A program made the position numbers and the translations under genes. The notes beneath the pieces were generated by a model. The model did no database searches, was not told the origin of the DNA, and saw nothing but the letters and a program-made list of their open reading frames with translations. Of a stretch of DNA of 64,000 nt, positions 33,413 to 60,551 are shown piece after piece. Source of the DNA: an uncultured bacterium (GTDB lineage Bacteria; Acidobacteriota; Thermoanaerobaculia; Multivoradales; JAHZIX01); NCBI GenBank assembly GCA_965368975.1, contig CBDUPA010000022.1, forward strand, positions 42,550 through 106,549, in the 5' to 3' direction. Positions within the stretch are counted from its first letter, which is position 1, and every line of letters begins with the position of its first letter.

Positions 33413-33674
33413 CTATTCGCCAGAGGCGGTTCGAGCCATCCGCAAGCTCGATCCACAGATTCGCCGGAGAGTTCGAAAAGGTATAGAACAGCTACAGGTC
33501 GAGCCGCTGCGCGGAAAGCCACTACAGTTCGAGTTCAAGGGGCTGCGCTCTTGGCGAACCGGGGATTTTCGGATTGTGTATTCCGTTCAAGATCATGTGC
33601 TTCGAATTTTGATTGTCACGGTGGGGCACCGTCGAGAGGTGTACCAGAAGCTGCGGACAAAGTTGCGGAGCTAA
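33396..33674 (+). CDS. RelE/ParE-family toxin
   Basis: GKPLQFEFKGLRSWRTGDFRIVY...VGHRREVY; overlaps the antitoxin. Confidence 0.9.
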   Translation: MSWRVDYSPEAVRAIRKLDPQIRRRVRKGIEQLQVEPLRGKPLQFEFKGLRSWRTGDFRIVYSVQDHVLRILIVTVGHRREVYQKLRTKLRS

Positions 33675-33693
33675 GACCGAGGAGATTCTGGTG

Positions 33694-34608
33694 ATGGCGA
33701 TTCCTACGTATCAAGAGTTGATGCTGCCTCTGTTGCGTCTGTCAGGAGATGGCAAAGTTCATGGGCTCCGAGACGCAATCATCTGGCTCGCAAACGAGTT
33801 CGCGCTTTCTCCGGAAGAGCGTCGACTGCGTCTACCGAGTGGTGAGAAGACAGTTCTTGGGAACCGGGCAGGTTGGGCCCGAACCCACCTCAAGAATGCA
33901 GGGCTTCTTGCTTATCCTGCTCAAGGTCAGTTGGTAATCACCGATCGTGGCCGGAAAGTGCTCGCCAAGGATCCGAAGAAAGTCGACAACCAATTACTGA
34001 GTCAGTTTCCTGAGTATCGTGCGTTCATGTCTCGCAATTCAGATGTGGACCCCAATGCAGGTACTTCCGAGGTTACGAGATCTGAGACCCAAACTCCGGA
34101 GGAGGAAATGGAGGCTGCATTTCAATCCCTTCGTGAAGGGCTGGCGGCAGACTTGCTGCAGGCTGTCAAGGATGGATCTCCAGCGTTCTTCGAGTCTTTG
34201 GTTGTCGATCTCTTGGTAAAGATGGGCTACGGCGGAACCCGAAAAGACGCCGGTGAAGCTATCGGCGGCAATGATGACGAGGGTATCGATGGAACTATCA
34301 AGGAGGATCGGCTGGGATTAGATGTCATCTATTTACAAGCTAAGCGTTGGGAGGGGGCTGTTGGTAGGCCCGAGGTCCAGAAGTTTGCAGGTGCGCTTCA
34401 AGGACAGAAAGCCAAGAAGGGTGTCTTCTTGACGACTTCCAGATTCACTCAAGGGGCTCAGGACTATGTAAGGCACCTGGATTCCAAGATCATTCTGATC
34501 GATGGTCGGCGGCTGACGGAGTTGATGATCGACTTCGGAGTTGGAGTAACGACTGTCCAGACATACGAGCTCAAGAGCGTCGACTCAGACTACTTCGCGG
34601 AAGGTTGA
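33694..34608 (+). CDS. mrr: Mrr type IV restriction endonuclease
   Basis: Mrr_N (IPTYQELMLPLL...NRAGWARTHL); DEGIDG...YLQAKRW, FLTTSRF, LIDG. Confidence 0.93.
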   Translation: MAIPTYQELMLPLLRLSGDGKVHGLRDAIIWLANEFALSPEERRLRLPSGEKTVLGNRAGWARTHLKNAGLLAYPAQGQLVITDRGRKVLAKDPKKVDNQLLSQFPEYRAFMSRNSDVDPNAGTSEVTRSETQTPEEEMEAAFQSLREGLAADLLQAVKDGSPAFFESLVVDLLVKMGYGGTRKDAGEAIGGNDDEGIDGTIKEDRLGLDVIYLQAKRWEGAVGRPEVQKFAGALQGQKAKKGVFLTTSRFTQGAQDYVRHLDSKIILIDGRRLTELMIDFGVGVTTVQTYELKSVDSDYFAEG

Positions 34609-34689
34609 GCAGGCTTAAAGAAGGCTGCGATGACAGTACATATCCGTGGTTAGAGTTTCTGAGAGACTGGATGTTGGAAGGGAGAGATT

Positions 34690-35322
34690 ATGGGCAAGAA
34701 CAAAGCTGAGAATGAGACTGAGCGACTGGGTGGGTATTGCATTCATTGCGAAAGCCCGTCGTCATTCTTTCTTTATCGTAGCGACCATTTTGATTTGCGT
34801 GGAGTTCCTTATGTGTACCGGTTTGCATCATGTGATAGGTGCAGCGGTCCTGCCGTTTTCTGGGCTGAGCACGCTGAGGGCTACGATGAAGAGGATCTAG
34901 CGCTCCATCGTGTTTTTCCTCGGCACCGGGCTTCTCTGGCATGCGCGCTTCCTAAGATTGCAGAGCAGTCCTTCAACGAAGCTATGCGCTGTGAAGAAGC
35001 CAAGGCGTGGCTAGCTGCGGTGGTTATGGTAGGTAGGACTCTTGAAGCTGTGTGTCAAGAGCACTTTTCGCAGGAGAAGGGGCTTACTATCTTCAAGGGT
35101 ATTGAGCTTCTATTCAAGGAAGGTCTGATCAGTGAGCAATTGAAGTCTTGGGCTGATGAACTGCGCATCCTTCGAAACATCGGGGCTCATGCAACAGATG
35201 TTGATGTTGATGAGAAGGATGCTAAAGAAGCAATCGATTTCCTTAGAGCGATTCTGGAAAATCTGTATGATTTGACCCCGAAATTTGAAAGCTTCAAGGC
35301 TAGACGAGCGATAGCTAAGTGA
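34690..35322 (+). CDS. DUF4145 (HEPN-like) protein with an N-terminal CxxC zinc ribbon
   Basis: CIHC...CDRC; AAVVMVGRTLEAVC; RNIGAH (Rx4H). Confidence 0.75.
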   Translation: MGKNKAENETERLGGYCIHCESPSSFFLYRSDHFDLRGVPYVYRFASCDRCSGPAVFWAEHAEGYDEEDLALHRVFPRHRASLACALPKIAEQSFNEAMRCEEAKAWLAAVVMVGRTLEAVCQEHFSQEKGLTIFKGIELLFKEGLISEQLKSWADELRILRNIGAHATDVDVDEKDAKEAIDFLRAILENLYDLTPKFESFKARRAIAK

Positions 35323-36885: not shown

Positions 36886-38706
36886 ATGGCTCTCGAAAGG
36901 CGCGAAGACCTTCGCAATCTCGCCATCATCGCCCACGTCGATCACGGCAAAACGACGCTGGTGGACGCCCTGCTGTGGCAGAGCGGTATTTTTCGCGACA
37001 ACCAGGAGGTGGCCGAGCGAGTGATGGACTCGATCGACCTGGAGCGCGAGCGCGGCATCACGATCATGGCCAAGAATACGTCCATCCGTTACCGCGACAG
37101 CCTGATCAACATCGTCGATACTCCGGGGCACGCCGACTTCGGCGGCGAGGTGGAGCGGACGCTGAAGCTGGTCGACGGCGTGCTGCTGCTTGTCGACTCC
37201 AGTGAAGGGCCGCTGCCGCAGACTCGCTTCGTGCTGCGCAAAGCGCTGGAGCTCGGGCTGCCGCCGATCGTCGTGGTCAACAAGATCGACCGGCCCGACG
37301 CGCGTCCGGCGGAGGTGCTGGACGAGGTCTACGACTTGTTCATCGACCTCGACGCGCACGAGGACCAGCTCGACTTCCCTGTGCTCTTCACCAATGCTCG
37401 TGAGGGCAAGTGCCGGCTGACGGCGGACGGCGAGGAGACGACGCTGGAGCCGTTGATGGAGGAAATCCTGCGCACCGTGCCGGCGCCGACCTACGATCCG
37501 GAGATACCACTGCAAATGCTGGTGACGACGCTCGACTACGACGACTATGTCGGCCGCCTGGCGGTGGGACGCGTGGTCAGCGGCAACCTCAAGCGCGGCC
37601 AGGAGGTAGCGCGCTGCCGTCTGGACGGCGAGGTGGAGCGGGTGAAGGTGACTGGCCTGTTTGGCCACCAGGGACTCAAGCGCGTGGCGGTGGAGACGGC
37701 GGGCCCCGGCGATATCGTGGCAGTGACCGGACTCGATGACATCTTTATTGGCGAGACGCTGGCCGACCTCGACGATCCGCGGCCGCTGCCGGTGATCCGG
37801 GTCGACGAACCGACCATCGCCGTCCACATCGGCATCAATGACTCGCCGCTGTCCGGCCGGGACGGCCAGCACGTGACGTCGCGCAAGCTGCGCGAGCGGC
37901 TGATCAAGGAAACGCTGGGCAACGTCGCGATCAAGGTCGAAGACACCGATTCGCCAGACACCTTCAAGGTCTCCGGCCGCGGCGAGCTGCAGCTGGCGAT
38001 CCTGATCGAGATGATGCGGCGCGAAGGTTTCGAGATGAGCGTCGGCAAGCCGGAGATCCTGACTCGGCGCATCGACGGCAAGCTCCACGAGCCGATGGAA
38101 TTGCTGGTGGTCGACTGCCCGGAGGAGTTTATCGGCGCGGTGACCCAGAAACTGGGCACGCGCCGCGGTCGCATGACCAAGATGAGCAACCATGGCTCGG
38201 GGCGCGTGCGCATCGAGTTTCGGCTGCCGTCGCGCGGCCTGATCGGCTTCCGCAACGAGTTCCTCACCGACACCAGGGGCACCGGCCTGATGCACCAGCT
38301 GTTCGACGGCTTCGACCCGTGGCAGGGTGACATCGTACGCCGGGCCTCGGGGGCCCTGATCTCCGACCGTGCCGGCAAGGTGACGGCCTACGCGGTGGAG
38401 AACTTGCAGCCGCGAGGTGTTCTCTTCGCCGGACCCGGCACCGAAGTGTATGAGGGCATGATCGTCGGCGAACACAACCGTCCGAGCGACCTCGACGTCA
38501 ATATCACCAAAGAGAAGCGACTGACCAACATGCGTGCCTCGAGCGCAGACGAGTTGGTGCGCTTGACGCCGCCGACGGTACTCAGCCTGGAGCAGGCGCT
38601 GGAGCTGATCGAGGACGACGAGTTGGTCGAGGTGACGCCGACCTCTTTCCGGCTGCGCAAGCGCACGCTGCGTGCCGCGTTCCGTAAGAGCAAGAGCAAG
38701 GGCTGA
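36886..38706 (+). CDS. typA: Translational GTPase TypA/BipA
   Basis: [38 protein letters not shown]. Confidence 0.98.
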
Positions 38707-38880
38707 GCGGCGAACCGCAGGCAAGTGTCCCGGTAGAGAGCTGTTGGCGCACAAACTTGGTGAGGTGGTAAGAAGCGCTGGTATGCCTCGCCAGCGTACA
38801 GTACAATCGACAACGGCCTGCCCTCTCGGCAAGCTTTTTGTTGTTGGGTTCCGCCGAACCCCGTCATTTGCAGCACCCGT

Positions 38881-40368
38881 GTGCTAGGGAAGAGGAGTAC
38901 CAGACCGTTGGCCATCCGTAGACTCAAGCGTGCCGTTAAATCGCCGATCCAGCCGGTTCCTCGCGAGCAACCGCTGCCGGCTAGCTTCTATCAAGAGTTC
39001 GCCTACATTCTGCAGGGTGATCCGGTCAGCAATGTGCTGAACATGCCGCAGGGGGCGATTCTCGGGGGGCAGGTCAATCTGCGGGCGCTGGAAGGCACCT
39101 TCGCGGAGATGATCCGGCGCCACGAGTCCCTGCGCTGCCACTTCGAGCCGCAGGAGAGCGGGCCGTTGCTACAGAAGCTGGAGGACCGCGGCAGCTACTA
39201 CCTGCCGGTGATCGACATCAGCGCCCTGCCGCAGGAAGTGCGCGAACAGGAGCGCCAGCGCCTGAGCGCGGCCTTCGCCGGTTTCCCGATGAACCTGCAC
39301 ACCGGGCCGCTGTTCATCACCACTGCCATCCTGCTCGGTCAGGACGCGGCAGCTCCGGGGGGCAGTCCTGGTCCCAACAAGGTGCTGGTGCTGATGAACT
39401 TGCACCACGCGTTCGGCGACGGATGGTCGATGACCGTGCTCAACCAGGAGCTGGTGACCATCTATCGCGCGCTGTCCAAGGGCCGGCCGTCGCCGCTGGC
39501 ACCGCCGCGTTTGCAATTCGCCGACTACGCGGCCTGGCTGCGCCGGCGCATGGACGAAGGCAAGCTGGACCCGCACCGCAAGTTCTGGCACGAGAACCTG
39601 AGTGGCGAGCGCGAATGGCCGCGCTTGCCCTACGACCGCCCGCGGACCGACGACATCGGTGCCCAGGTGCACAGCACGTCGCTGCAGTTCGATCCCGACA
39701 CGGCGAACGACATCCGCACCTTCAGTCGCAAGCTCGGCTGCACGGTGCCGATCACGTTGCTGTCCGGTGTGCATGCCTTGCTCAACGGCTACAGCGGCCA
39801 GGAGGACGTCATCGTCGCCTGGGTGACGGCGGCGCGCAACCGTCCCGAGCTGGCCGGCATGATTGGCCTGTTCATGAACACCGTGGCGGTACGCGCCGAC
39901 ATCGGCGGCGACCCCACGTTCGAAGATCTGGCGGTGCGTGTGCGCAAGGCGTCGCTGGCCGCTTACGACCACCAAGAGATGCCCTACGTCACGCTGCTCC
40001 AGGAGTTGTTCCCGGACCGCAAGCTGGCGCGTACGCTGCTGACTCCGGTGGTCTTCAACATGCTGTCGTTCGCACCGCCGCCAGGTTCGGTCGGTGCGGG
40101 CACGCCGATGGACCTGGACGTCACCATGGAGATGGTGGGTTTGGGTGCCCAGGAGCAGGCGAAGTTCGACCTCACCTTCACCTGCATGGAATCGCCCTCG
40201 GTCATTGCGCTCAGTCTGTCCACCGCCGCCGCTCTCTTCGACAAAGAGACCGCGGAGGCGATTCGCGACGACTACCAGGATCTGATGAACCGGGCCATCG
40301 CCAATCCGGCCTTGCCGATGAGTGAGTTGACCAGCGGACTGCGCCTGCGCAGCCCGTCGAAGCAGTAA
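38881..40368 (+). CDS. Stand-alone NRPS condensation domain protein (alternative TTG start 38908)
   Basis: RRHESLR, LHHAFGDGWS (HHxxxDG), LQFADYAAW, LPYDRPR, IGLFMNT, AYDHQEMPY; no A or PCP domain. Confidence 0.9.
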   Translation: MLGKRSTRPLAIRRLKRAVKSPIQPVPREQPLPASFYQEFAYILQGDPVSNVLNMPQGAILGGQVNLRALEGTFAEMIRRHESLRCHFEPQESGPLLQKLEDRGSYYLPVIDISALPQEVREQERQRLSAAFAGFPMNLHTGPLFITTAILLGQDAAAPGGSPGPNKVLVLMNLHHAFGDGWSMTVLNQELVTIYRALSKGRPSPLAPPRLQFADYAAWLRRRMDEGKLDPHRKFWHENLSGEREWPRLPYDRPRTDDIGAQVHSTSLQFDPDTANDIRTFSRKLGCTVPITLLSGVHALLNGYSGQEDVIVAWVTAARNRPELAGMIGLFMNTVAVRADIGGDPTFEDLAVRVRKASLAAYDHQEMPYVTLLQELFPDRKLARTLLTPVVFNMLSFAPPPGSVGAGTPMDLDVTMEMVGLGAQEQAKFDLTFTCMESPSVIALSLSTAAALFDKETAEAIRDDYQDLMNRAIANPALPMSELTSGLRLRSPSKQ

Positions 40369-40429
40369 CCACATTCATGGTGGAATCCCCGCGGATTCCG
40401 CTGTCGATACGTTCGCGAGGGGAAGACCC

Positions 40430-41650
40430 ATGACTGAATTGCACCGCTTCCGCAACAGTGCCAAGGGCATGAAGTTGCTTGGCCCTTCCTTCGAGGAAGC
40501 AACCCGCAACGGCCTGATGGACATCGTTGCCCGCGACCTGGGCAACGATCACATGCTGTCGGACGATGGCCTCGATTTCATCAATCTGTCGTGCTGCAAC
40601 TATCTCGGCCTGCACAATCACCCGAAGGTGCTGGAATCCACCATCAAGGCCGTGCAGGAGTCGAACACTCTGACGCTCGGCTTTTCCCGCATGCGCATCC
40701 GTCTGAGCCACCTCGACCGCGCCGAGCGCGAAATGTCGGAGGTCTTCGGCTGCAACTGCCTGCTGGTGCAGTCGGCCAGTGTTGCGGCGCTGGCGGTGCT
40801 GCCGATGATGGCGGCCGGCGTGATCGGCACCGGCGAGCCGCCGGTGATGGTCTACGACAAGCACAGCCACTTCTGCATGAACCTCACCAAGCCGGTGTGC
40901 GCTGACGAGACCGAGGTGCTGACCTGCCCGCACAACGACTTCGACTTCCTCGAGGACGTGTGCAAGAAGCACAAGAACGTGGTCTATGTCGGTGACGGCG
41001 TCTATAGCATGGGCGGTCGGACCGTGCTCGAGAAGCTCAAGGAGCTGCAAGACAAGTACGGCCTGTGGCTGTATCTGGACGATTCGCATGCCTTGTCGCT
41101 GTACGGCGAGAACGGCGAAGGCTTCGTGCGCGCTCACCTGAAGGAAGAGGACGAACGTACGGTGATCGTCGGCTCGCTGGCCAAGGGCTTCGGCGCTTCC
41201 GGCGGCGTGGTGATGATCCACAAGAAGTGGGTGCCCAAGTTGATGACGCCGTTCGGTGGTCCGAGCGTCTGGTCGACGCAGCTGAATGTGCCGAGTTGCG
41301 GTGCCGTTCTGGGCTCGCTCGAGGTGCACCGTTCTCCGGAGCTGCAGGAGCTGCAGGGCAAGTTGCAGGCCAACCTCAAGACCTTCGACGACCATATCGA
41401 GACCCCGGGCAAGGGCACGCCGTTCCCAGTGCGCGTGATCCAGATTGGTGACGGCGAGCGGGCGGCCGAGCTGTCCGGTGAGTTGCTGCGCCGCGGCTTC
41501 TACACGTCGGCCGTGTTCTTCCCGATCGTTGCCCGTGGCAAGGCCGGTCTGCGTGCCATGCTGCGCGCCAACAACAAGACTGAGGACATCATCCGCTTCG
41601 TCGAAACCGTCAAGGACGTGGTCGGCGACGAGATCGTCAGCGCCGCCTGA
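40430..41650 (+). CDS. PLP-dependent alpha-oxoamine synthase family protein (KtmB-like), copy 1
   Basis: NYLGL, HSH, DGVYSMGG, DDSH, SLAKGFG (PLP Lys), FFPIVARG..GLR. Confidence 0.85.
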   Translation: MTELHRFRNSAKGMKLLGPSFEEATRNGLMDIVARDLGNDHMLSDDGLDFINLSCCNYLGLHNHPKVLESTIKAVQESNTLTLGFSRMRIRLSHLDRAEREMSEVFGCNCLLVQSASVAALAVLPMMAAGVIGTGEPPVMVYDKHSHFCMNLTKPVCADETEVLTCPHNDFDFLEDVCKKHKNVVYVGDGVYSMGGRTVLEKLKELQDKYGLWLYLDDSHALSLYGENGEGFVRAHLKEEDERTVIVGSLAKGFGASGGVVMIHKKWVPKLMTPFGGPSVWSTQLNVPSCGAVLGSLEVHRSPELQELQGKLQANLKTFDDHIETPGKGTPFPVRVIQIGDGERAAELSGELLRRGFYTSAVFFPIVARGKAGLRAMLRANNKTEDIIRFVETVKDVVGDEIVSAA

Positions 41651-41699
41651 GCGCGCGCTGACGGCGGTCCACCAGAACCGCGATTCGCCAGCAGCTCGA

Positions 41700-41750
41700 G
41701 GGCCGCGGCGCCGTGAACTGAACCTCTCGCGCCCGGCCCCTTTTCGTTTT
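41700..41750 (+). terminator. Imperfect hairpin with U tract inside the cluster (possible attenuator)
   Basis: GGGCCGCGGCG...CGCGCCCGGCCCC followed by TTTTCGTTTT. Confidence 0.35.
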
Positions 41751-41818
41751 CACTTTCCCTTGTTTGTCAATCCCCTCCTGGAGGAGGGTTCTGCAGAAGG
41801 GTCCCGAGGAGACCTGCC

Positions 41819-42700
41819 ATGTTGTTGTACCGCGACATCCTTCTGACGTCCGCACAGACGCCTGAGCGTTTCGTCAAGGCCAAGGAGGTCAAACCCGACC
41901 TCTGCCTGGTCAACTGCGAAGACCCGATTCCCCAATTCGAAGAGGACAAGGCGCGCGCCCGCAAGGTGTCGCTCGAGTGGCTCCAGCAAGAACACGAGGA
42001 GCCACCGTACGGCATCATGATCAACTGCCTGCGCACGCGCTTTGGCTTCCAGGACGTGCTGGCGTTGCAAGAGAGCGGCGCCAGACCCGAATACATCCTG
42101 ATGGCCAAGGTGGAAGATCCGGAGGAGATCCGCATCGTCCACGAGATGTTGTCGCCGGTGATCCAGCCGCTGCGCCTGGGCATGATCGTCGAGTCGCTGC
42201 GCGGTGTCTGGGCACTGCACGAGATCGTGCACGCGGCCCCCAGCGTTGCTGGGCTGGTCCTCGGTGCGGCCGACTACGCCAACAACCTTGGCGTCGACGT
42301 CAATCCGGAGAGCCTGGCTCCCATCCGAGCCCGCATGGGTATGGCGGCGGCCAGCGCCGGCATTGCCTGCTGGGATGCGCCCTACTTCCACTACCAGGAT
42401 CTCGACGGTCTGCGAGAGGAGTGTCGGCGCGCCCGGGCCTTCGGTTTCACCGGCAAGACGACGATCCACCCGAGCCACTGCAAGATCATCGAAGAAGAGT
42501 TCAAGCCCTCGTCGCGCGCCATCGACTTCGCCAAGCGAGTCGTGGCCGCGTGCGAAGAGCGCCGCGGTGGCATCGCGGTGGTCGACGGTCAGATGGTCGG
42601 CCGCCCCTTCGTCGCCAATGCTCGACGGGTGCTGGCGGCGGCCGGCGAGCCGATCCCCCCTACTCAGCAGGGAGATACCCCGCAGGGAGAGACAGCATGA
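41819..42700 (+). CDS. CitE/HpcH-HpaI-family CoA-ester aldolase (KtmA-like)
   Basis: NCEDP, MIVES, GAADY, GFTGKTTIHP, VDGQMV. Confidence 0.85.
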   Translation: MLLYRDILLTSAQTPERFVKAKEVKPDLCLVNCEDPIPQFEEDKARARKVSLEWLQQEHEEPPYGIMINCLRTRFGFQDVLALQESGARPEYILMAKVEDPEEIRIVHEMLSPVIQPLRLGMIVESLRGVWALHEIVHAAPSVAGLVLGAADYANNLGVDVNPESLAPIRARMGMAAASAGIACWDAPYFHYQDLDGLREECRRARAFGFTGKTTIHPSHCKIIEEEFKPSSRAIDFAKRVVAACEERRGGIAVVDGQMVGRPFVANARRVLAAAGEPIPPTQQGDTPQGETA

Positions 42701-43227
42701 AGAACCCCGTCGCCGCTCACAAGCAGGTGGGCGACAAGCGCTACCGCGAGGTGTCCGGCCTCTACTTCGACGACTTCGAGGTCGGCGACGTGTTCGAACA
42801 TCGTCCCGGGCGTACCGTCACCAATACCGACAACATCTGGGGCTCGCTGCTGGCGATGAACCCGCACCCGCTGCACATCGACGCGGCCTACTGTGAGCAC
42901 ACCGAGTTCGGCGAGCTGCTGGTGTCCAGCCTGGTCACGTTCTCGATCGTCAATGCCATGACTGTCACCAGCACCAGCTTCAAGGCGATCGCCAACCTGG
43001 GCTGGGACAAGGTACGCTTGACCGGGCCGGTCTTCGCGGGTGACACGTTGTACGCCGAGTCCGAAGTGCTGAGCAAGCGCGAGTCCAAATCGCGTCCCGG
43101 CCAGGGCATTGTCACCGTGCGCACGCGTGGCCTGAAGCAGGACGGCAGCGAGATCATGCACTTCGAGCGCACGTTCCTGGTGCCAGTGCGCGGCAGTGAG
43201 ACCGTCGAGTCCAAGGCTGGTTATTGA
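42697..43227 (+). CDS. MaoC-family acyl-CoA dehydratase (KtmC-like)
   Basis: GLYFDDFEVGDVFEHRPGRTVT.TDN...NPHPLHID...NLGWDKVR..PVFAGDTL; ATGA overlap with the aldolase. Confidence 0.9.
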   Translation: MKNPVAAHKQVGDKRYREVSGLYFDDFEVGDVFEHRPGRTVTNTDNIWGSLLAMNPHPLHIDAAYCEHTEFGELLVSSLVTFSIVNAMTVTSTSFKAIANLGWDKVRLTGPVFAGDTLYAESEVLSKRESKSRPGQGIVTVRTRGLKQDGSEIMHFERTFLVPVRGSETVESKAGY

Positions 43228-43238
43228 TGGGGGAGTTG

Positions 43239-44234
43239 ATGCGAGCGATCGAAGTCACCGAACCCGGGGGGCCGGAGGTTCTGCAGATCCAGGATGTGCC
43301 GATGCCGGAGCCCGGCCCCGGCCAGCTGCGCGTACGTATTCGAGCGGCAGCGCTCAACTACGCTGACACCTTGCAGCGCAAGGGGCTGCTCAGTGCGCCG
43401 GGCGACAACCAGCGCCTGGGGATCGAGCTGGCCGGCACCATCGACGCCATCGGGGACGGTGCCACGGACGTCGACGGCGGCGCCTGGAAGGTGGGGGAGC
43501 GGGTGTTCGCCATCATCACCGCCGGTGCCTATGCCGAATACGCGCTGACAGAGGCGGCGCTGACCCAGCGCATGCCCGAGAACTGGGACTATCCCGAGGC
43601 CGCCGCGGCACCGGAAGCCTTCTACGTGGCCAACGAGACGCTCTTTCACGTCGGTGGCCTGCAGCGCGGTGACAGCGCGCTGATCCATGCCGGCAGCAGT
43701 GGCATGGGAACCGGCTTGCTGCAGCTGGCGCACGTCAAAGGCATCACCGTGCTGACCACCTCGGGCAGCCCGGAAAAGCGTGCCCGCCTCGAGGAGCTCG
43801 GTGCCGACCTGGTTATCGACTACAAGAACCAGGACTACCTGGAAGCTGTCCGGGAGTTCACCGACGGTGCCGGCGTCGACCTGGTGCTCGACATGGTCGG
43901 CCAGCGCTACCTGGGCAAGAACCTGCAGGCGCTCAAGCCCGATGGTCGGTTGATCCAGATCGGTCTGCTCGAGGGCTACGATCCGGGCGAGCTGGATCTG
44001 CTGCTGCTGGTCATGAACCGTCTGATCGTCCGCGGCTGGGCCATGCGTGGCCAGTCCAACGACGACAAGCGTCAGATCGTGCGTCGTTTCCGTGACCAGG
44101 TATTGCCGCGTTTTGCTGCCGGCGAGATCCGGCCGGTGGTCGACTCCACCTTCCCGCTCGAAGACGCCGCGGGTGCGCACCGCCACCTGGAGTCGCACCG
44201 GCACTTCGGCAAGATCGTGCTGACTGTCGACTGA
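43239..44234 (+). CDS. MDR-family NAD(P)H quinone/enoyl reductase (KtmF-like role inferred)
   Basis: PGGPEVL, ALNYAD, LIHAGSSGMG, GADLVIDY, HFGKIVL. Confidence 0.88.
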   Translation: MRAIEVTEPGGPEVLQIQDVPMPEPGPGQLRVRIRAAALNYADTLQRKGLLSAPGDNQRLGIELAGTIDAIGDGATDVDGGAWKVGERVFAIITAGAYAEYALTEAALTQRMPENWDYPEAAAAPEAFYVANETLFHVGGLQRGDSALIHAGSSGMGTGLLQLAHVKGITVLTTSGSPEKRARLEELGADLVIDYKNQDYLEAVREFTDGAGVDLVLDMVGQRYLGKNLQALKPDGRLIQIGLLEGYDPGELDLLLLVMNRLIVRGWAMRGQSNDDKRQIVRRFRDQVLPRFAAGEIRPVVDSTFPLEDAAGAHRHLESHRHFGKIVLTVD

Positions 44235-44293
44235 CCCGGAACTCGGAGTTTGCATCTCGTCAATTCCGATTCGTGATGGAGTGAGGCCGGACC

Positions 44294-45529
44294 ATGAGTG
44301 GCTTGCATCGTTTTCGCAATAGTGCCAAGGCTATGGCGCTGACCGCGCCGTCGTTTCAGCAGGTCCGTGACCACGGTCTCGTCGGCCTGAGCGTCGAGAA
44401 CCTCGGTGGTGACCTTCTGCGCGGCGCCGACGGCACCGAGTTCACCAGCTTCTCGTTCTACTCCTACCTCGGGTTGGAGAACCACCCGAAGGTCATCGAG
44501 GGTGCTATCGACGCTTTGCGTCGCGTCGGTATGTTCCGCATGCCGATGTCACGCATGCGCGCCAACTTCGACCTCGTTGAGCAGATCGAGGCTGACCTCT
44601 CCGAGCTGTGGCGCTGTAACCTGGTACTCACCTCGTCGGCCAGCAACGCCGCGCTCGGGGTCCTGCCGCTGATGGCCGCCGGCCTGATTGGTGAGGGCGA
44701 AGCGCCCGTGATGGTGTTCGACGGGCACAGCCACTTCTGCATGAACCTGGCCAAGCCCGTGTGCGCCGACGAGACCGAGGTGCTCACCTGCCCGCACAAC
44801 GACTTCGATTTTCTGGAAGACGTGTGCAAGAAGCACGAGCACGTCGCCTACGTCGGGGACGGCGTCTACAGCATGGGCGGTGCCTCGGCGCTCGATGAAT
44901 TGCTGCGCTTGCAGGACAAGTACGGTCTCTACCTCTACTTCGACGACACCCACTCCGTGTCCCTCTACGGTGAGTTCGGCGAAGGCTTCGTGCGTGCCCG
45001 CACCGAGGACCTGCACGAGCGCACCATCATCGCTGCGTCCCTCGGCAAGGGTTTCGGTGCCTCGGGTGGGGCCATTCTGATGCACCAGCGTCACGCCCAG
45101 GCCCTCTTGACACCTTATGGCGGCCCGGTGGTCTGGTCGCAGAGCCTCAATGTTCCGTCATTGGGCGCCATCGTTGGTTCGATCGAGGTCCACCGCACGC
45201 CCGAGCTAGCTGAGTTGCAGCAGAAGCTGCGTCGCAACATCGAACTCTTCGATCGTCAGATCGGCACACCGCAACAGGGCGGTCCGTTCCCGGTGCGCGT
45301 CATTCGTATCGGTGCCGCCGAGGAAGCCGCCGAGATCTCCGGTGAATTGCTGCGTCGTGGCTTCTACTGCTCCGCCGTCTTCTTCCCGATCGTCGCTCGC
45401 GGCCAGGCAGGCCTCCGCGCCATGCTGCGCGCCAACCAGAGCGAAGAGCAGATCGTCCGCTTCTGCGACACGGTCAAGGACGTGGTGGGAGAAGAGCGGT
45501 TGCAGGAGCTGAGCACGCCGTCTGCCTGA
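44294..45529 (+). CDS. PLP-dependent alpha-oxoamine synthase family protein (KtmB-like), copy 2
   Basis: Clear paralog of 40430-41650: SYLGL, DGVYSMGG, DDTH, SLGKGFG. Confidence 0.85.
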   Translation: MSGLHRFRNSAKAMALTAPSFQQVRDHGLVGLSVENLGGDLLRGADGTEFTSFSFYSYLGLENHPKVIEGAIDALRRVGMFRMPMSRMRANFDLVEQIEADLSELWRCNLVLTSSASNAALGVLPLMAAGLIGEGEAPVMVFDGHSHFCMNLAKPVCADETEVLTCPHNDFDFLEDVCKKHEHVAYVGDGVYSMGGASALDELLRLQDKYGLYLYFDDTHSVSLYGEFGEGFVRARTEDLHERTIIAASLGKGFGASGGAILMHQRHAQALLTPYGGPVVWSQSLNVPSLGAIVGSIEVHRTPELAELQQKLRRNIELFDRQIGTPQQGGPFPVRVIRIGAAEEAAEISGELLRRGFYCSAVFFPIVARGQAGLRAMLRANQSEEQIVRFCDTVKDVVGEERLQELSTPSA

Positions 45530-45657
45530 TCTCCTGCTTGGCCCCCTTTTTTGCCACTTAGCGCGTCTTCATATAGAGAGACATCGAGTCGGAGCCGTCG
45601 TGCCGCAAGTACTTCAAGCGCACGCTCTCCCGCTCGGGCGAAAGGAGGTGAGCGCGA

Positions 45658-45747
45658 ATGAACACGGTTTTGGCGTTGCAGGATCTGAGTGATGGTCGCG
45701 ATGACACGCAGCAGCTGTCGTCGCTGATCAGCCTGAATTGTTGCTGA
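45658..45747 (+). CDS. Class III lanthipeptide precursor (29 aa, not in the ORF track)
   Basis: AAAGGAGGTG RBS; MNTVLALQDLSDGRDDTQQLSSLISLNCC*; LxLQ leader motif and S-x2-S-x2-C core; directly upstream of lanKC. Confidence 0.92.
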   Translation: MNTVLALQDLSDGRDDTQQLSSLISLNCC

Positions 45748-45779
45748 GCTCAGCACCGGCTTGATCTTACGCAAAGACA

Positions 45780-45815
45780 GCTTCGGGCGCTTCGCGTCCG
45801 CGTCGCGCCCGGAGC
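45780..45815 (+). terminator. Stem-loop after the precursor gene
   Basis: GCTTCGGGCGC...GCGCCCGGAGC followed by AGTATTCTTTCT. Confidence 0.55.
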
Positions 45816-45877
45816 AGTATTCTTTCTCGATAGCACAACAGCCCGCTGGCGCTGGGCACTGACCTTTTGGATGCACC

Positions 45878-48583
45878 ATGGCACTCGCGATAGAGCGGCG
45901 ACTGAAGCGCGGCATGTTCGCCTTCACAGTCGTCGATCGAAGATACTTTGAAGATCTCGCACGTTATCAACCGGCCGATCGCACGTTTCAAGACCTGATC
46001 GAGGCTCATCTGCCGCCAGCTTGGAGCTGCCGGCGGGAGGAGATCTGGCTCAAGGTGGTTCCGCCGGAGCGGCCGCTGCCGGCACAGGGGTTCAAGATTC
46101 ACCTCTCGGCCACCTCGCGTTCCAGCCGAGACACTCTGGGGCGGGTACTGCCCCTGCTGCTGGAAGGCGAACTGGCTTTCAAAGTCGTGGCCGACGATTT
46201 TCTGCTCGACTTCTTGAATTCCAAGAACGGCTCTCGATCCTCCTCCGGCAAGTTCATCACCATTTACTTGCCCGAGGCGGAGATCGGACTGGACTTGTTG
46301 CCTCGACTGGAGCAGGAGGTTGGCGAGGCGGCGGCGCCGTACATCTTGACCGACCGGCGCTACGGGGACAGTCGGGCGGTCTTCTATCGCTACGGCGGCA
46401 TCCGACCGCACTTCCGGCTCAATCTCTTCGGTGAGAAGGAGCCACTGCTGCGCCTACCGGACGGCAGCCAGGTCCTCGACGAGCGGGCCCCTGTGTTCAG
46501 CTGTCCACCGGGCATCGAGGATCCGTTTCAGCCGCCGCAGGTCACGAGATCGGAAGCCGCGGACGACACCGATCTGCTGCGGGGACGCTACCGGGTGCTC
46601 GAGGCACTGCAGTTCGCGAACTCCGGGGGAGTCTACGCCGGGATCGACGTTACGACGGGGCAGAAGGTCGTGATCAAAGAGGCGCGGCCCTACGTCAGCG
46701 TGCGTCGCGGCTCGGATCTGGACGCCGTGGCGATCCTGGACAAGGAAGCGCGGGTTCTGGAGCGCTTGCAACCACTGTTGTGCGTGCCTCGCTTGCTCGA
46801 TCGCTTTGAACATTGGGAGCACTCCTTCCTGGTCGAGGAGTACATCGAGGGCCGAACCCTGTCCTCGTACCGAGCCCTCGACGATGTCGGCCTGCTGGTG
46901 CAGCCGCGCCTGACAGCTCAGCGGGTCGCAAGCTTCTGTCGCCGCTTCGCGCGGCTCGGTCTCAATCTGTTGCGGGCTGTGCGCGCGTGTCACGATCTCG
47001 GTGTGCTCCTGGGGGATCTTTCGCCATCGAACGTGCTGGTCGACCTGGAAACCCTGGATGTGACGCTGATCGATTTCGAAGGCGCCTTCCTGGACGGCGA
47101 CCACCGTGGCCAGGAGATGGCGGCGGTGACCGGCGGGTTCGTGTCGCCGCGCCGGATTCAGGGGCAGGCACCGGTGCCCGAGGACGACTACTACTCGCTC
47201 GGGTCCGTCCTCTACAGTCTGATCCTGCCGATCCAGGCCTTCTTCCCCTTGCAGCCGGAGGCGCAGCGGACGATGTACCAGGCGATCGAGCACGATCTCG
47301 ACCTCCCGGCGGAGGTCGGGGCGGGGCTCTTCGCGCTGCTGGACGGTGAGCCGGAGCGGGCGCGTGATCACCTGGAAGCGCTCCTGCGACTGCCGCCGCG
47401 GCCGACGGCCTGGTGCCCACGACCGCTGACGCCACCGGACGCGGCCCTGCAGCAGCAAGCCGAGTGCACCCTGCAAGCGATCGTCCGCGACCTGCAGGCG
47501 TGCGCCGACTTCGAGCGCGACGATCGCCTGTGGCCGGCGGACTACCGCGTCTTCACCACCAATCCGCTCAACCTGGCGTACGGTGCTACCGGTATCGCCC
47601 TGTTCCAGCATGCCGTCACTGGCCGGCTCGACGAACGCGTCAGGGGCTGGTTGTTGCAGCACCTACCGTCGTCCAGGACCTGCCCGCCGGGCTTGTTCGT
47701 GGGCATGGCGGGCATTGCCTGTGGCTTGACCGAGCTCGGACTGCCAGACGCAGCCCGTGATGTCCTGGAGGGGGCCTGGCAGTCGCCGTTGCGCGACGAA
47801 GGTTTCGACCTCTTCTATGGTCTCGCGGGCTTGGGGCTGGCGCATCTGTACTTCTGGCACACCTATCGGGAACCGCGCTTCCTGGCTCGCGCTCGGTACG
47901 CGGCGCAGCGGCTCGAGCAGGCCGCGGTCCAGGCGGACATCGGTTGTTACTGGACCAACGTCGATGGTCACCAGTACTACGGCTATGCCCACGGTGGCAG
48001 TGGTGTCGCGCTCTTCCTGCTGCGCTTGCACGAAGCGACCGGCGACGTGATGCCGCTCGCGCTCGGCCGTCGGGCGCTGGAGCACGAGATGTCGGCGGCG
48101 GTGCGGCGTGAGGGGCAGGCAGGCTGGTGGCGCGCGCCGGACCACCCTCTGCTGTCTCCGTACTGGCGCTACGGGGCCGCGGGAGTCGGTAGCGTGTTGA
48201 TCCGCTACTACCAAGCCTTGGGCGACGAGCGCACCTTGCGTCTGGCCGAGGAGGCCGCCGTCTATGCCGCCTCCCGCTACTCGGTCTACCCAGGCCAGCT
48301 CTTGGGCCTCGCCGGCATGGGCGAGTTCCTACTCGACTTGTTTCTCGCCACCGGCGATTCACGCTATCACCACCAGGCCTGGGACCTGGTGCGAAGTGTG
48401 CTGCACTTTCGGGTCGAGACTCCTCATGGCATCTCGTTTCCGGGTGAGGAGTTGATCCGCTTGAGCACGGACTTCGCCACAGGTAGCGCCGGTATCGGCA
48501 TGTTCTTGGAGCGTTGTTTACGGCCACGGCATCGCTTTCTCCTGGACTTGCCAGCACACAGAAAGGTACCTGGCGATGCTTGA
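45878..48583 (+). CDS. lanKC: Class III lanthionine synthetase (lyase-kinase-cyclase)
   Basis: Lyase QGFKIHLS/SSGKFITIY/TDRRY/FYRYG; kinase NSGGVY/VIKEARP/GDLSPSN/IDFE; cyclase YWRYGAAG/STDFATGSAG lacking the Zn-ligand Cys residues. Confidence 0.93.
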   Translation: MALAIERRLKRGMFAFTVVDRRYFEDLARYQPADRTFQDLIEAHLPPAWSCRREEIWLKVVPPERPLPAQGFKIHLSATSRSSRDTLGRVLPLLLEGELAFKVVADDFLLDFLNSKNGSRSSSGKFITIYLPEAEIGLDLLPRLEQEVGEAAAPYILTDRRYGDSRAVFYRYGGIRPHFRLNLFGEKEPLLRLPDGSQVLDERAPVFSCPPGIEDPFQPPQVTRSEAADDTDLLRGRYRVLEALQFANSGGVYAGIDVTTGQKVVIKEARPYVSVRRGSDLDAVAILDKEARVLERLQPLLCVPRLLDRFEHWEHSFLVEEYIEGRTLSSYRALDDVGLLVQPRLTAQRVASFCRRFARLGLNLLRAVRACHDLGVLLGDLSPSNVLVDLETLDVTLIDFEGAFLDGDHRGQEMAAVTGGFVSPRRIQGQAPVPEDDYYSLGSVLYSLILPIQAFFPLQPEAQRTMYQAIEHDLDLPAEVGAGLFALLDGEPERARDHLEALLRLPPRPTAWCPRPLTPPDAALQQQAECTLQAIVRDLQACADFERDDRLWPADYRVFTTNPLNLAYGATGIALFQHAVTGRLDERVRGWLLQHLPSSRTCPPGLFVGMAGIACGLTELGLPDAARDVLEGAWQSPLRDEGFDLFYGLAGLGLAHLYFWHTYREPRFLARARYAAQRLEQAAVQADIGCYWTNVDGHQYYGYAHGGSGVALFLLRLHEATGDVMPLALGRRALEHEMSAAVRREGQAGWWRAPDHPLLSPYWRYGAAGVGSVLIRYYQALGDERTLRLAEEAAVYAASRYSVYPGQLLGLAGMGEFLLDLFLATGDSRYHHQAWDLVRSVLHFRVETPHGISFPGEELIRLSTDFATGSAGIGMFLERCLRPRHRFLLDLPAHRKVPGDA

Positions 48584-51017
48584 GCAAGGCTTGCGCACCG
48601 GACTACGTCTGATGACTCGGCAGCGAGGTTTCGCCACTGCCTTGATCCTCACACTGGCACTGGGCGTCGGTGGGGTCACGGCTTTCTTCGCCGTGCTCTA
48701 CGGCGCCGCGCTGCGGCCGTTGCCGTACCCTCGGTCCGGCGAGCTCGTCTTGTTCCAGTGGCAAGGGCCTGGAGGGGGGGCTTCCTATGCCACCAGCGAG
48801 GGGCGCTTCCGCGCCTGGCAGGCGCAGCCGTCGCCGTTCGCCGCGCTGGCCGCGCACCAGCTCAAGAGCGCGGGGCAGACCGTTGGAGATCCAGGAGGGG
48901 AGCCACGCTATGTCCAGACGCTGAAGGTCTCGACGAGCTTCTTCGAGACCTTGGCAGTGGCACCTTTCTTGGGCCGGGTGTTCTTGCCGAACGATGGCTA
49001 TGCCGGGGCGTCCTGCTCGGTCGTGGTGGCTCATGACTTTTGGCGCCATGATCTCGCTGAACAATGGCCTGCCGAGGTGCGGGTGGGTGGCGAGCACTGC
49101 CAAGTGGTCGGCGTCATGCCCACGGACTTCCGCTTTGCTCCCGCGGCGCAGCTTTGGGTACCGCAGCGTGCGGGGGGTAGGAGCGAGAGCGGGGCCAACC
49201 TCTATGCCGTTCTGGGACGGCTGGCCGAGGGGTTCGACCGACGCCAGGCAGAAAATGCAGTCAATGCGATGGGGAGAGCCGTTGCGGCCAGCGAGCCGCG
49301 GGTGGCCGAGACGGAGCGAATCCGTCTGCTCAGTCTCGAGGAGCGCTTGCGCGGTGCAGGGCGCGCTCGTCTGTGGCCGTTGGCCCTCGCTGGAGGGCTG
49401 GTGCTGTTCGTTTGCCTGCTCAATCTGTCGCATCTCTTGGTGGCGTACGTCGGGTGCCGCCAGCAGTCCCTCAGCCTGCGGCGGGTGCTCGGAGCTCCTT
49501 GGACGCGCATCGGGACCGGGATTCTCGCCGAACTGACGCTGCCGACGCTGACCGGGATCGGGCTCGGGCTGGTCCTCGCATCCGCGGTCCTGGCGTGGGT
49601 CTCGAAGACGGGCGCTCTGGCACTCTCAGCGGTCGCGGTGGTGTCGTTGGGGTGGGTCGAATTTGCCTTCGCTGCCTGGATCACGGTTCTGTGCATGGGC
49701 TTGGTGGTCACGGTCTTGGTTGTGCGCATGGCTCGACGCGAGAGCTCCTCCGCCTTGCGTCCAGAAGCCGCGCACCGCTCCTGTACTCGCATCGTCGGGC
49801 GGCCGCTGGCTCGCAGACTGGTGGCTATCCAGGTCGCGTGCTCGTTGGCCGTTCTCTTCACGACTTTCTTGTTCTATGGCAACCTGCAGCGTCTCGGCCG
49901 AGTCGATCTGGGGTTCGATACGGCAGGTGTCTGGACCTTTCAGGCTCCACGAGAGGCGGTGGCGTCGACGGCCGGCAACCAACGCTTCACCGAGGCGGTG
50001 ATCGAGCGCTTGCAGCTCCTGCCGGGAGTCACGGCGGTGGCCACGACGACCAGTCTGCCGACAGAACTCGGGCTCAACATTCCCGCGGAAGTCGAGAGCG
50101 GGCAGGTGCTCGACGCGGCTTCCGTCGAGTTACGGGCCGTGAGTCCGGACTACTTCCGAGCCTTGAGTATTCGCATCGAGCAGGGCCGTGGACTGGATCC
50201 CCTCGACCAGGCAGGGACATCGCCGGTCGCCGTGGTCAACGAAGCCTTCCAGCGGCGCTTCTGGGGCCGGGGGCCGGAGAGGGACGCGCCCAGTGCTGTC
50301 GGTCAGCGTCTGCGGTTGGCGCGAGGTCTGGGGCCTCTCAGCGACGCGCCGCGGGAGGTCGTGGGCATCGCGGCGGACGTCCGTACCGCTGGCCCGGCCG
50401 TGCCAGTGCCGGCGATTGTCTATGTGCCTCGGCCGCAGCTGCCAGAGGCCCTCCAGGAGCTGATCGATCAGGCTTTCCCAGTCTCGTTTGTGGTCCGTCT
50501 CGAGAACGAGCGCACCCTCGATCCTCGCCGCGTGCGGGCCCTGGTCCGCGACGTGGAACCCTGGCAGGCGCTCACCGCCCATCGCGGTATGGCTGAGGTG
50601 GTGCAGGGAGCCCTGAGCGGGCACCGGCTCCATGCCCTGCTAGCAGTCTTGTTCGGCTTTTTGGGACTGTCGCTGTCGTCGCTGGGCATCTTCGGGGTCA
50701 CCCATGCTGACGTGGTCCTGCGCACCCGGGAGTTCGGAGTACGTAAGGCCATTGGGGCCTGTGAGAACAGTGTGCTCCGCCTCGTTCTGGGTACAGTCCT
50801 CGGACGGACGCTGGCCGCCATTGTGGTCGGACTACCTCTGTGCGGCGCCGTCTTCCGTGGACTCGGAAGCCTGGTCGTCTTCGACGATGACTGGCTCGCT
50901 GCGCTTGGCGGCGCAGCCTTGTGCGTTCTCGCCGTCGCCGTTCTGGCGGCTGTGGTCCCCGCGTGGCGTGCTGCGCGTCTGGACCCTCTGTGCGCTCTGC
51001 GCTCCGAGGAGAGCTGA
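48576..51017 (+). CDS. ADOP-type duplicated ABC permease (MacB/FtsX x2)
   Basis: GFATALILTLALGVG..LRPLPYP; LGRVF; VVGVMP; DLGFD; VSPDYF; RTREFGVRKAIGA; PAWRAARLDP. Confidence 0.88.
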   Translation: MLEQGLRTGLRLMTRQRGFATALILTLALGVGGVTAFFAVLYGAALRPLPYPRSGELVLFQWQGPGGGASYATSEGRFRAWQAQPSPFAALAAHQLKSAGQTVGDPGGEPRYVQTLKVSTSFFETLAVAPFLGRVFLPNDGYAGASCSVVVAHDFWRHDLAEQWPAEVRVGGEHCQVVGVMPTDFRFAPAAQLWVPQRAGGRSESGANLYAVLGRLAEGFDRRQAENAVNAMGRAVAASEPRVAETERIRLLSLEERLRGAGRARLWPLALAGGLVLFVCLLNLSHLLVAYVGCRQQSLSLRRVLGAPWTRIGTGILAELTLPTLTGIGLGLVLASAVLAWVSKTGALALSAVAVVSLGWVEFAFAAWITVLCMGLVVTVLVVRMARRESSSALRPEAAHRSCTRIVGRPLARRLVAIQVACSLAVLFTTFLFYGNLQRLGRVDLGFDTAGVWTFQAPREAVASTAGNQRFTEAVIERLQLLPGVTAVATTTSLPTELGLNIPAEVESGQVLDAASVELRAVSPDYFRALSIRIEQGRGLDPLDQAGTSPVAVVNEAFQRRFWGRGPERDAPSAVGQRLRLARGLGPLSDAPREVVGIAADVRTAGPAVPVPAIVYVPRPQLPEALQELIDQAFPVSFVVRLENERTLDPRRVRALVRDVEPWQALTAHRGMAEVVQGALSGHRLHALLAVLFGFLGLSLSSLGIFGVTHADVVLRTREFGVRKAIGACENSVLRLVLGTVLGRTLAAIVVGLPLCGAVFRGLGSLVVFDDDWLAALGGAALCVLAVAVLAAVVPAWRAARLDPLCALRSEES

Positions 51018-51030
51018 GAGCGGGGAGGGG

Positions 51031-57430: not shown

Positions 57431-57472
57431 CGAAGCTCCAGGGTTCGGCGCGGCGTGAGCCACACCGAGCGC

Positions 57473-60403: not shown

Positions 60404-60512
60404 GCTGGCGTCTCTCCGGAACGTGAAGACGGGAGGGCGGGAAACGGGGAAGGCGGAAGTCAGGACTATAGCAGTAGCCCCCCTCCGGCGAGCTTGGCGT
60501 CGTGTCGTCGCC

Positions 60513-60540
60513 TGTAACCTTTTCTCCTCCCCGTGCGTTG
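60513..60540 (+). promoter_or_regulatory. Probable autoregulatory ECF sigma promoter
   Basis: TGTAACC-N16-CGTTG immediately upstream of the ECF gene. Confidence 0.55.
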
Positions 60541-60551
60541 AGTACAGTGGG

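Follow-up and report, generated by a model that had tools for sequence, protein, structure and literature searches.

The 64,000-nucleotide window analyzed here, taken from contig CBDUPA010000022.1 of an uncultured acidobacterium (assembly GCA_965368975.1), carries at 38908-45529 six co-directional genes for a free-standing condensation (C) domain of the nonribosomal peptide synthetase (NRPS) type, two alpha-oxoamine synthases (AOS1 and AOS2), a CitE/HpcH-type aldolase, a MaoC-type dehydratase and an MDR-family reductase. The best explanation for this stretch is a ketomemicin-like cassette belonging to an NRPS-linked branch that occurs in Acidobacteriota and Myxococcota. From sequence comparisons, and with a probability of roughly one half, we propose that the cassette is a pathway to a ketomethylene pseudodipeptide and that its C domain N-acylates the amine of the product with a donor that is not encoded beside it. 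The original prediction for this DNA let the cassette end at 45529 and overlooked a class III lanthipeptide operon that adjoins it.

All six genes had been described as co-oriented in that prediction, and we found them on the plus strand, in the stated positions and intact, with a single correction concerning the start of the C-domain gene. The longest reading frame of this gene begins with GTG at 38881 and comprises 495 residues; a start at TTG 38908, which lies behind a GAGGAG box, is more likely and yields 486 residues, just as many as the protein has in its public record (P0309). The gene thus occupies 38908..40368 (plus strand). PF00668 matches with 229 bits over residues 31-484 of the longest frame, in which Pfam detects a C domain only, and the HHxxxDG motif is intact, as had been claimed, reading HHAFGDG at residues 175-181. 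AOS1 (40430..41650, plus strand), a KtmB-like C-acyltransferase dependent on pyridoxal 5'-phosphate (PLP), and its paralogue AOS2 (44294..45529, plus strand) reach 479 and 504 bits, respectively, with NF005697/PRK07505 (cut-off 342), in contrast to 158 and 138 bits with the bioF model (cut-off 426) and 126 and 121 bits with that for Kbl (cut-off 460). The two proteins are 62% identical, form a sister pair with a support of 1.0 and retain the family-invariant residues Lys252, His147, Asp217 and His220 (AOS2 numbering in an alignment of 13 sequences); the lysine of the SLGKGFG motif present in both would bind PLP, as it does in BioF-type enzymes. The KtmA-like aldolase gene (41819..42700, plus strand; PF03328, 72.7 bits) stays below the cut-offs for RipC (219 bits, cut-off 375) and citE (113 bits, cut-off 443), and the gene for the KtmC-like (R)-hydratase/dehydratase of the MaoC type (42697..43227, plus strand; PF01575, 64.6 bits), whose start overlaps the aldolase stop by 4 bases, stays below that for RipB (249 bits, cut-off 340). 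A further overlap of 4 bases leads from the MaoC stop to the start of the NAD(P)H-dependent MDR gene (43224..44234, plus strand), a candidate for the role of KtmF that exceeds the cut-off of the PIG3 subfamily model TIGR02824 (345 bits, cut-off 297). GC3 lies between 0.82 and 0.86 throughout the six genes and the flanking genes are alike in this respect.

According to the accessible text of two reports, the products of the ktm genes are an aldolase, a C-acyltransferase that depends on PLP, a dehydratase, a ligase of the ATP-grasp type, an amidinotransferase plus a dehydrogenase, which constitute an NRPS-independent pathway (PMC11943689, PMC13514850). Our reference for this arrangement, locus L055, stems from a Streptomyces strain for which a genome note, as far as it is accessible, mentions a ketomemicin-analogue cluster (PMC7317104). 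Its genes follow the order ktmA-F, with an HpcH aldolase, an AOS, a MaoC protein, a PreATP-grasp/PGM1_C protein, a 387-aa gene product and an MDR protein. Scores for L055 amount to 516 bits with PRK07505 and to 216.5 and 191 bits with RipC and RipB, both below the cut-off, and the PIG3 model is matched as well. The same models thus respond in the same pattern as in the window, so the four-enzyme core is common to both. The claim that neither an ATP-grasp ligase nor an amidinotransferase is present was borne out: tblastn (E <= 1e-3) with the KtmD- and KtmE-like proteins of L055 yielded no match in the window, and at the same threshold the PGM1-type ATP-grasp ligase resembling KtmD had no match in the whole genome either, while one match to the KtmE-like amidinotransferase, 30% identical, was located on another contig (C26). 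Queries for T and A domains of relatives were treated in the same way and found nothing in the window, which leaves the C domain alone there, an unusual situation, with no carrier or adenylation domain nearby.

On the basis of these family assignments, the aldolase would condense a 2-oxo acid with malonyl-CoA to a 2-substituted malyl-CoA, which the MaoC enzyme would dehydrate and the MDR enzyme, by reducing the double bond, would convert to a 2-substituted succinyl-CoA. Each AOS would then join this thioester to an amino acid with loss of CO2, giving a pseudodipeptide of the amino-ketomethylene type in which both the amine and the carboxylate are free, the core of arphamenines and ketomemicins. 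The C domain would replace the ATP-grasp ligase KtmD and convert the free amine that AOS leaves on its product into an amide, the donor probably being an acyl, aminoacyl or peptidyl thioester that is either bound to a carrier protein acting in trans or supplied as a CoA ester. Every substrate in this scheme, and likewise the product, is predicted. The role of KtmD and the use of malonyl-CoA and phenylpyruvate in ketomemicin biosynthesis were reportedly described by Kawata et al. in 2017.

With regard to the distribution of the cassette, single-protein scans of genome and metagenome contigs for close relatives of AOS2 returned none, and alignment-based scans were then used. With one genome per species these produced 453 relatives, the best 80 loci of which were kept for counts; since at most 10 kb were fetched on each side of a locus and some contigs are short, all counts of loci are lower bounds. 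MaoC genes lie near AOS in 68 of the 80 loci, aldolase genes (at least 30% identity) in 58 and MDR genes in 40, while KtmD-like ligases and KtmE-like genes were encountered in nine and seven loci, respectively. A C domain ends no more than 400 bp upstream of AOS in ten loci, all from Acidobacteriota or Myxococcota, the two phyla that also provided many of the best-matching AOS loci overall. In the five of these ten that were inspected with Pfam, it forms the end of an NRPS, either as ...A-T-C (L032, L002, L003) or as T-C at the start of a contig (L014, L022). The replacement of the ligase by a C domain had been presented as a feature of a new pathway; the presence of the one and the absence of the other stand, but in view of the ten loci with an upstream C domain the pairing of C domain and cassette is not unique. 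Other loci, e.g., L001, L029, L034, L036, L042 and L173, have no C domain, ATP-grasp or NRPS gene within 10 kb. The MaoC protein of the window is 53-71% identical to those of related loci (60% in the case of L055), and its MDR protein is 40-49% identical to those of acidobacterial and myxobacterial loci. PRK07505 proteins are rare in the phylum, with occurrences in two of 400 further genomes. In a midpoint-rooted tree of 84 AOS sequences, for which the window's own genome offered no BioF- or Kbl-like outgroup, AOS1 and AOS2 fall within a clade of 28 leaves (support 0.84) that is mainly acidobacterial and mycobacterial.

Phylogenetic analysis of 217 C-domain sequences, including 159 from the host genome itself (G000), placed the C domain of the window in a clade of 13 leaves with a support of 0.996. 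Its other members are terminal C domains, two from L003 and one each from L032 and L022, the C-C protein at the side of the cassette in L011 and six database proteins, and it contains none of the 159 other C domains of the host. An evolutionary tie connects this C clade with the AOS cassette. In the relatives, a C domain located after the last carrier domain can only release its chain onto a free nucleophile, and the next gene would make a compound with a free amine, so members of this clade would form an amide with the AOS product. Free-standing C proteins adjoin the cassette in L011 and in L094, the latter containing the best metagenome relative of the window's C domain, a free-standing C-C protein with 38% identity. 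In both loci (L011, 9962-21050; L094, 19-10769) genes for a DUF3326 protein, AOS, aldolase, MaoC and MDR face the gene for the C-C didomain protein (918 or 930 aa), and L094 additionally encodes a separate A-T protein and a MarR-GNAT fusion. A second organism, represented by proteins P0002, P0123 and P0189, likewise has the C protein in free-standing form (93% identity), together with an AOS2 that is 96% identical. L003 (828-21203) is laid out differently, namely as ...A-T-C / AOS / C-A-T...C / C-A..., without aldolase, MaoC or MDR genes in the 21 kb fetched, and hints that AOS may serve NRPS lines in another way.

The host genome further contains, at G000:C2:503511-508358 (L093, 7512-12359), an orphan NRPS that consists of one module (luciferase-like monooxygenase-C-A-T), ends in the carrier domain without a release domain and is surrounded by the housekeeping genes SufBD, Dus and BshC. 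It may be a trans partner for the free-standing C domain. Its A domain is 48-50% identical to the last A domains of myxobacterial clusters vs. 47.7% to A domains of its own genome, and because the similarity to AOS-linked last modules is only marginally above the genome background it remains a weak lead.

Several observations weigh against the proposed pathway. The ktm-type AOS sequences form a clade of their own (19 leaves, support 0.99) that excludes AOS1 and AOS2, so that these two may act on an acyl-CoA and an amino acid other than those used by KtmB. The original prediction of a ketomemicin-type cassette is supported with respect to the enzyme families, which are those of the ktm-ordered L055, and to their linkage across phyla. 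The MDR protein is only 27-28% identical to the gene product in the KtmF position of L055, L046 and L064. The terminal C domains from myxobacteria, six in number, group apart from this clade (support 0.998), and the tie between C domains and AOS is therefore not one single lineage. A thioester donor for the C domain is not encoded in the window, where tblastn found neither T nor A domains nor ATP-grasp enzymes, and a CoA ligase was not found in Pfam scans of the neighboring open reading frames. Because no group of the AOS product is activated, the sequence of reactions given above is a guess. Finally, two such AOS genes stand side by side in none of the 80 related loci; both genes had been listed previously, but their doubling had been given no weight. 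As a guess, two different amino-acid specificities would be the simplest account of the duplication.

Downstream of the cassette, 128 bp after AOS2, lies the gene for a class III lanthipeptide precursor of 29 aa, MNTVLALQDLSDGRDDTQQLSSLISLNCC (45658..45747, plus strand; NF038154, 25.4 bits vs. a cut-off of 22). It is preceded by an AGGAGG box 8 bases before the ATG and is the sole open reading frame of this kind in the window. The leader reads VLALQDL and the core SLISLNCC or SSLISLNCC (8-9 residues); in the longer version Ser, Ser and Cys occupy positions 2, 5 and 8 (SxxSxxC), followed by one extra residue, and the spacing SxxSxxxC fits too. Precursors with an (I/V)LxLQ leader also precede LanKC in L091 and L092, and L092 (11599-12051, minus strand), from another genome of the phylum, has three of them in tandem before LanKC, with near-identical leaders MQ(N/K)VL(L/S)LQKL and short, Cys-rich cores. 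A GC-rich hairpin with an 11-bp stem and an inner 3-bp stem (45780..45815, plus strand) is a likely attenuator; the surrounding 141 nt fold with -55.1 kcal/mol (z = -2.1), and a scan for consensus terminators did not call the hairpin. The following gene (45878..48583, plus strand) encodes the class III synthetase LanKC with lyase, kinase and cyclase parts (PF25816, PF00069, PF05147), which covers positions 3-832 of the 833 positions of NF038151 (722 bits, cut-off 575) and stays below the cut-off of the class IV model (568 bits vs. 650). Its stop is overlapped by 8 bases by the start of a gene for a duplicated MacB/FtsX permease of the ADOP family (48576..51017, plus strand; PF12704, PF02687; TIGR03434 508 bits, below the cut-off of 622), a likely exporter, and an ADOP-like gene flanks LanKC in L091 also. 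Precursor, LanKC and permease together constitute a self-contained, complete class III module. Elsewhere in the phylum, LanKC was detected in two of 400 genomes. The LanKC of the second organism is 59% identical, with the first 14 residues identical and the remainder evenly divergent, so that the lanthipeptide module looks as if it had been replaced or were diverging fast beside a conserved cassette. We also considered an avionin as the product and regard this as unlikely, the sole HFCD flavoprotein gene of the host genome being located on another contig in a frame of 461 aa.

The contact between the two modules raises the question of a covalent hybrid. According to this explanation all nine genes from 38908 to 51017 serve one product: LanKC would introduce a single labionin or lanthionine ring into the core of 8-9 residues, the leader would be removed, and the C domain, in place of the usual acyltransferase, would cap the N-terminal amine with a cassette-derived acyl unit supplied as a CoA thioester, much as in lipolanthines but with a ketomemicin-type unit where those have a polyketide lipid. 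Nine co-directional genes without a consensus terminator between them, the short distance from AOS2 to the precursor and a single exporter at the end agree with this idea, and so does a cassette without a partner for its own C domain. Both modules, furthermore, are rare in the phylum (two of 400 other genomes each for PRK07505 and LanKC) and yet touch here, and in the second organism AOS2 and LanKC seem to be held together, the only contig with LanKC and the longest one with AOS2 both measuring 7453 bp. The very short precursor has a core resembling the SxxSxxC cores of lipolanthines, and the single HFCD flavoprotein gene lies elsewhere in the genome (compare the accessible text of PMC7540663). 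On the other hand, LanKC was found near AOS in none of the 80 loci and near relatives of this C clade in none of 79 metagenome loci; LanA-LanKC modules stand alone in L091 and L092; and in G021, a genome of the same order whose AOS match coincides with locus L032, different contigs carry the cassette (C1) and LanKC (C3). The core also fits the ordinary labionin motif SxxSxxxC, which the L091 precursor uses twice, the pseudodipeptide would have no thioester for transfer after the AOS step, and folding reveals a 7-bp stem with a run of six U residues after the AOS2 stop. With 59% identity for LanKC vs. 96% for AOS2 in the second organism, the modules evolve apart. In sum, a covalent hybrid appears unlikely, while co-regulation of cassette and lanthipeptide genes without a covalent link is possible and compatible with the pseudodipeptide pathway favored here.

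The C domain might also be a functionless leftover of a lost NRPS, in which case the cassette would deliver one or two free, arphamenine-like pseudodipeptides, the two AOS accounting for two products with different amino acids. Four enzyme types suffice for this on paper, C-domain, ATP-grasp and NRPS genes are missing within 10 kb in many related loci, no gene in the window would supply a donor, and synteny with related genomes breaks exactly before the C gene, as expected after a rearrangement. A leftover is distinctly unlikely nonetheless, given a C gene that is intact, has kept its motif, a good ribosome-binding site and a GC3 of 0.86, is retained in free-standing form at 93% identity in the second organism and has free-standing counterparts from the same clade beside the cassettes of L011 and L094. 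Instead of using a free CoA ester, AOS might act as a chain-release enzyme that takes an acyl or peptidyl chain off a carrier in a Claisen condensation, with the terminal C domain as docking partner; in the window the two would serve an NRPS encoded elsewhere. The position of AOS directly after a T-C end in ten of the 80 loci is in line with such a function, as are L003 and L022, where AOS lies between two NRPS genes and no aldolase, MaoC or MDR gene occurs in the fetched DNA, and the orphan NRPS on contig C2, which has no release domain. We nevertheless consider chain release very unlikely, for AOS is tied in the window and in most loci to three enzymes that would make a thioester of the succinyl-CoA type, and the A domain of the orphan NRPS is barely closer to the last A domains of myxobacterial clusters than to those of its own genome. 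A role in catabolism or primary metabolism, finally, with aldolase and MaoC as the itaconate-degrading pair RipC/RipB and AOS as BioF or Kbl, is hardly credible. RipC and RipB are indeed the best-named NCBIfam matches of the two proteins, but these matches fall short of the cut-offs (219 vs. 375 and 249 vs. 340 bits), both AOS score far below the BioF and Kbl thresholds and above that of PRK07505, no CoA-transferase family appeared in Pfam scans of the neighboring reading frames, and genes for NRPSs or ATP-grasp enzymes accompany the set in other genomes; it occurs in one of 60 relatives and in two of 400 further genomes from the phylum. Grouping with catabolic or primary-metabolism families had been named in the original prediction as an observation against it; the enzymes stay below the curated cut-offs for BioF, Kbl, RipB, RipC and CitE.

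The host, correctly described earlier as non-actinobacterial, is a soil-type member of the Acidobacteriota with a genome of 7.13 Mb in 59 contigs (99% complete). For a genome of this size its NRPS load is very high: open frames reach 14804 aa, Pfam detected 119 C-domain matches when 111 of 232 candidates had been scored, and tblastn gave 159 long C-domain matches besides the C domain of the window. Six cassette and three lanthipeptide genes form the co-directional run from 38.9 to 51.0 kb on the plus strand, and the gene 3' of the permease is on the opposite strand. Upstream, the housekeeping gene for BipA ends about 200 bp before the C gene and is part of a DUF4442-PilZ-BipA block that is syntenic in four of five genomes of the same family, the fifth being 82% complete. 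Synteny stops directly after BipA, i.e., in front of the C gene, and none of the window genes 3' of BipA occurs near BipA in these five genomes. A consensus scan of 38500-51500 indicated neither a promoter-like site nor a terminator between genes. Beside the syntenic block, an islet of low GC content (33613-35322; 0.55-0.59 vs. about 0.65 around it) is probably a small defense island, with genes for a restriction endonuclease of the Mrr type and for a DUF4145/HEPN-like protein. Four large peptidase genes surround the cluster, encoding an M1 aminopeptidase with HEAT repeats (4652-7477), an M4 thermolysin-like peptidase with a PKD domain (29266-31857), a TldD/PmbA protein (53906-57463) of 1185 aa with two separate matches to the metallopeptidase domain, and a prolyl oligopeptidase of family S9 (58148-60649). 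Leader removal in class III lanthipeptides is a known function of M1 and S9 enzymes, and M1 enzymes are also targets of arphamenine-type inhibitors. A gene resembling that for the TldD/PmbA protein was not found in the five same-family genomes at E <= 1e-50.

Pseudopeptides of the ketomethylene type mimic peptides but cannot be cleaved, and the known examples inhibit peptidases. While all enzyme families and the core chemistry of the cassette are known, the wiring is new, i.e., the freed terminal-type C domain, the doubled AOS and the contact with an operon for a peptide made by ribosomes and then post-translationally modified (a RiPP). Our search of the open literature, subscription journals being largely uncovered, turned up no account of a ktm-like cassette from hosts other than Actinomycetota, nor of one joined to a C domain or NRPS or lying beside a lanthipeptide operon. 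Within the literature searched, and as far as its accessible text goes, accounts of ketomethylene biosynthesis are confined to the ktm clusters of Actinomycetota, which comprise six genes and depend on an ATP-grasp enzyme (PMC11943689, PMC13514850), and a survey for all six ktm genes reported this phylum only (accessible text of PMC11943689). The four-enzyme core, by comparison, is widespread, as the 453 relatives among species-representative genomes demonstrate, and its wiring to terminal C domains of NRPSs in Acidobacteriota and Myxococcota points to what may be a general way of making nonribosomal peptides that end in a ketomethylene unit. The window holds the smallest such wiring, one C domain and no NRPS, and the C-domain step is therefore directly testable. 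Likewise, the contact of cassette and lanthipeptide genes offers an inexpensive way to find out if there is a new kind of RiPP hybrid. If there is, its product would be lipolanthine-like and PKS-free (formed without polyketide synthase) outside Actinomycetota, and to our knowledge its C domain would be the first shown to acylate a ribosomal peptide. In a softer form of the idea, the two modules would be a co-regulated pair that provides a protease-inhibiting pseudopeptide alongside a lanthipeptide.

Among the known systems, lipolanthines of the microvionin type are class III octapeptides N-acylated with a unit derived from polyketide synthase (PKS) or NRPS, and their cores share a conserved SxxSxxC, with extra C-terminal residues in the subtype devoid of LanD, as stated in the accessible text of PMC7540663. 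The window resembles them in the combination of LanKC with a very short precursor, in a core that can be read with Ser at positions 2 and 5 and Cys at position 8, in the absence of LanD (as in subtype III, following the same part of that source) and in the presence of genes of another natural-product class in the same block. It differs in its non-actinobacterial origin, in a core that also suits the ordinary labionin motif SxxSxxxC and in the lack of PKS or fatty-acid machinery and of a known peptide acyltransferase, PKS, acyl carrier protein (ACP) and GNAT families being absent from Pfam scans of the neighboring reading frames.

Arphamenines of Chromobacterium are free ketomethylene pseudodipeptides of the Arg/Phe type that inhibit aminopeptidase B, and the product expected from AOS has the same skeleton with a free amine. 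A gene cluster for arphamenines was not found in the literature searched. Free-standing C domains of the VibH type link an acyl group, bound to a carrier, through an amide to the free amine of a small molecule; likened to them by description only, the window offers a stand-alone HHxxxDG C domain with a proposed soluble amine as acceptor. Arphamenines and ketomemicins have been linked through PLP-dependent C-acyltransferases, as can be taken from the accessible text of PMC9239090.

Compared with ktm clusters, the window likewise has aldolase, AOS and MaoC genes side by side, its AOS proteins are 45-46% identical to that of L055, and a ketomethylene pseudodipeptide core would be the common chemistry. 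The MDR protein shares the Pfam families and the PIG3 model with that of L055, yet only at the low identity given above. The window lacks an ATP-grasp ligase and an amidinotransferase and has a C domain instead, the AOS is doubled and lies outside the ktm AOS clade, and the host belongs to the Acidobacteriota; on paper the window would be ktm-like without being a ktm cluster. The closest likeness in layout is to the apparently undescribed NRPS-linked, ktm-like clusters of Acidobacteriota and Myxococcota (L032, L002, L005, L010, L014), which show the same order of C domain, AOS, aldolase, MaoC and MDR, with the spacing of the window matching that of L032. Here too the relationship extends to the sequences, the C domain falling in the clade of L032, L003 and L022 and the AOS in the same clade of 28 leaves. 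In those clusters, however, a multimodular NRPS longer than 3300 aa terminates in the C domain (...A-T-C), whereas that of the window is a separate protein of 486 aa with no NRPS in the window, accompanied by a doubled AOS and, on the 3' side, a lanthipeptide operon.

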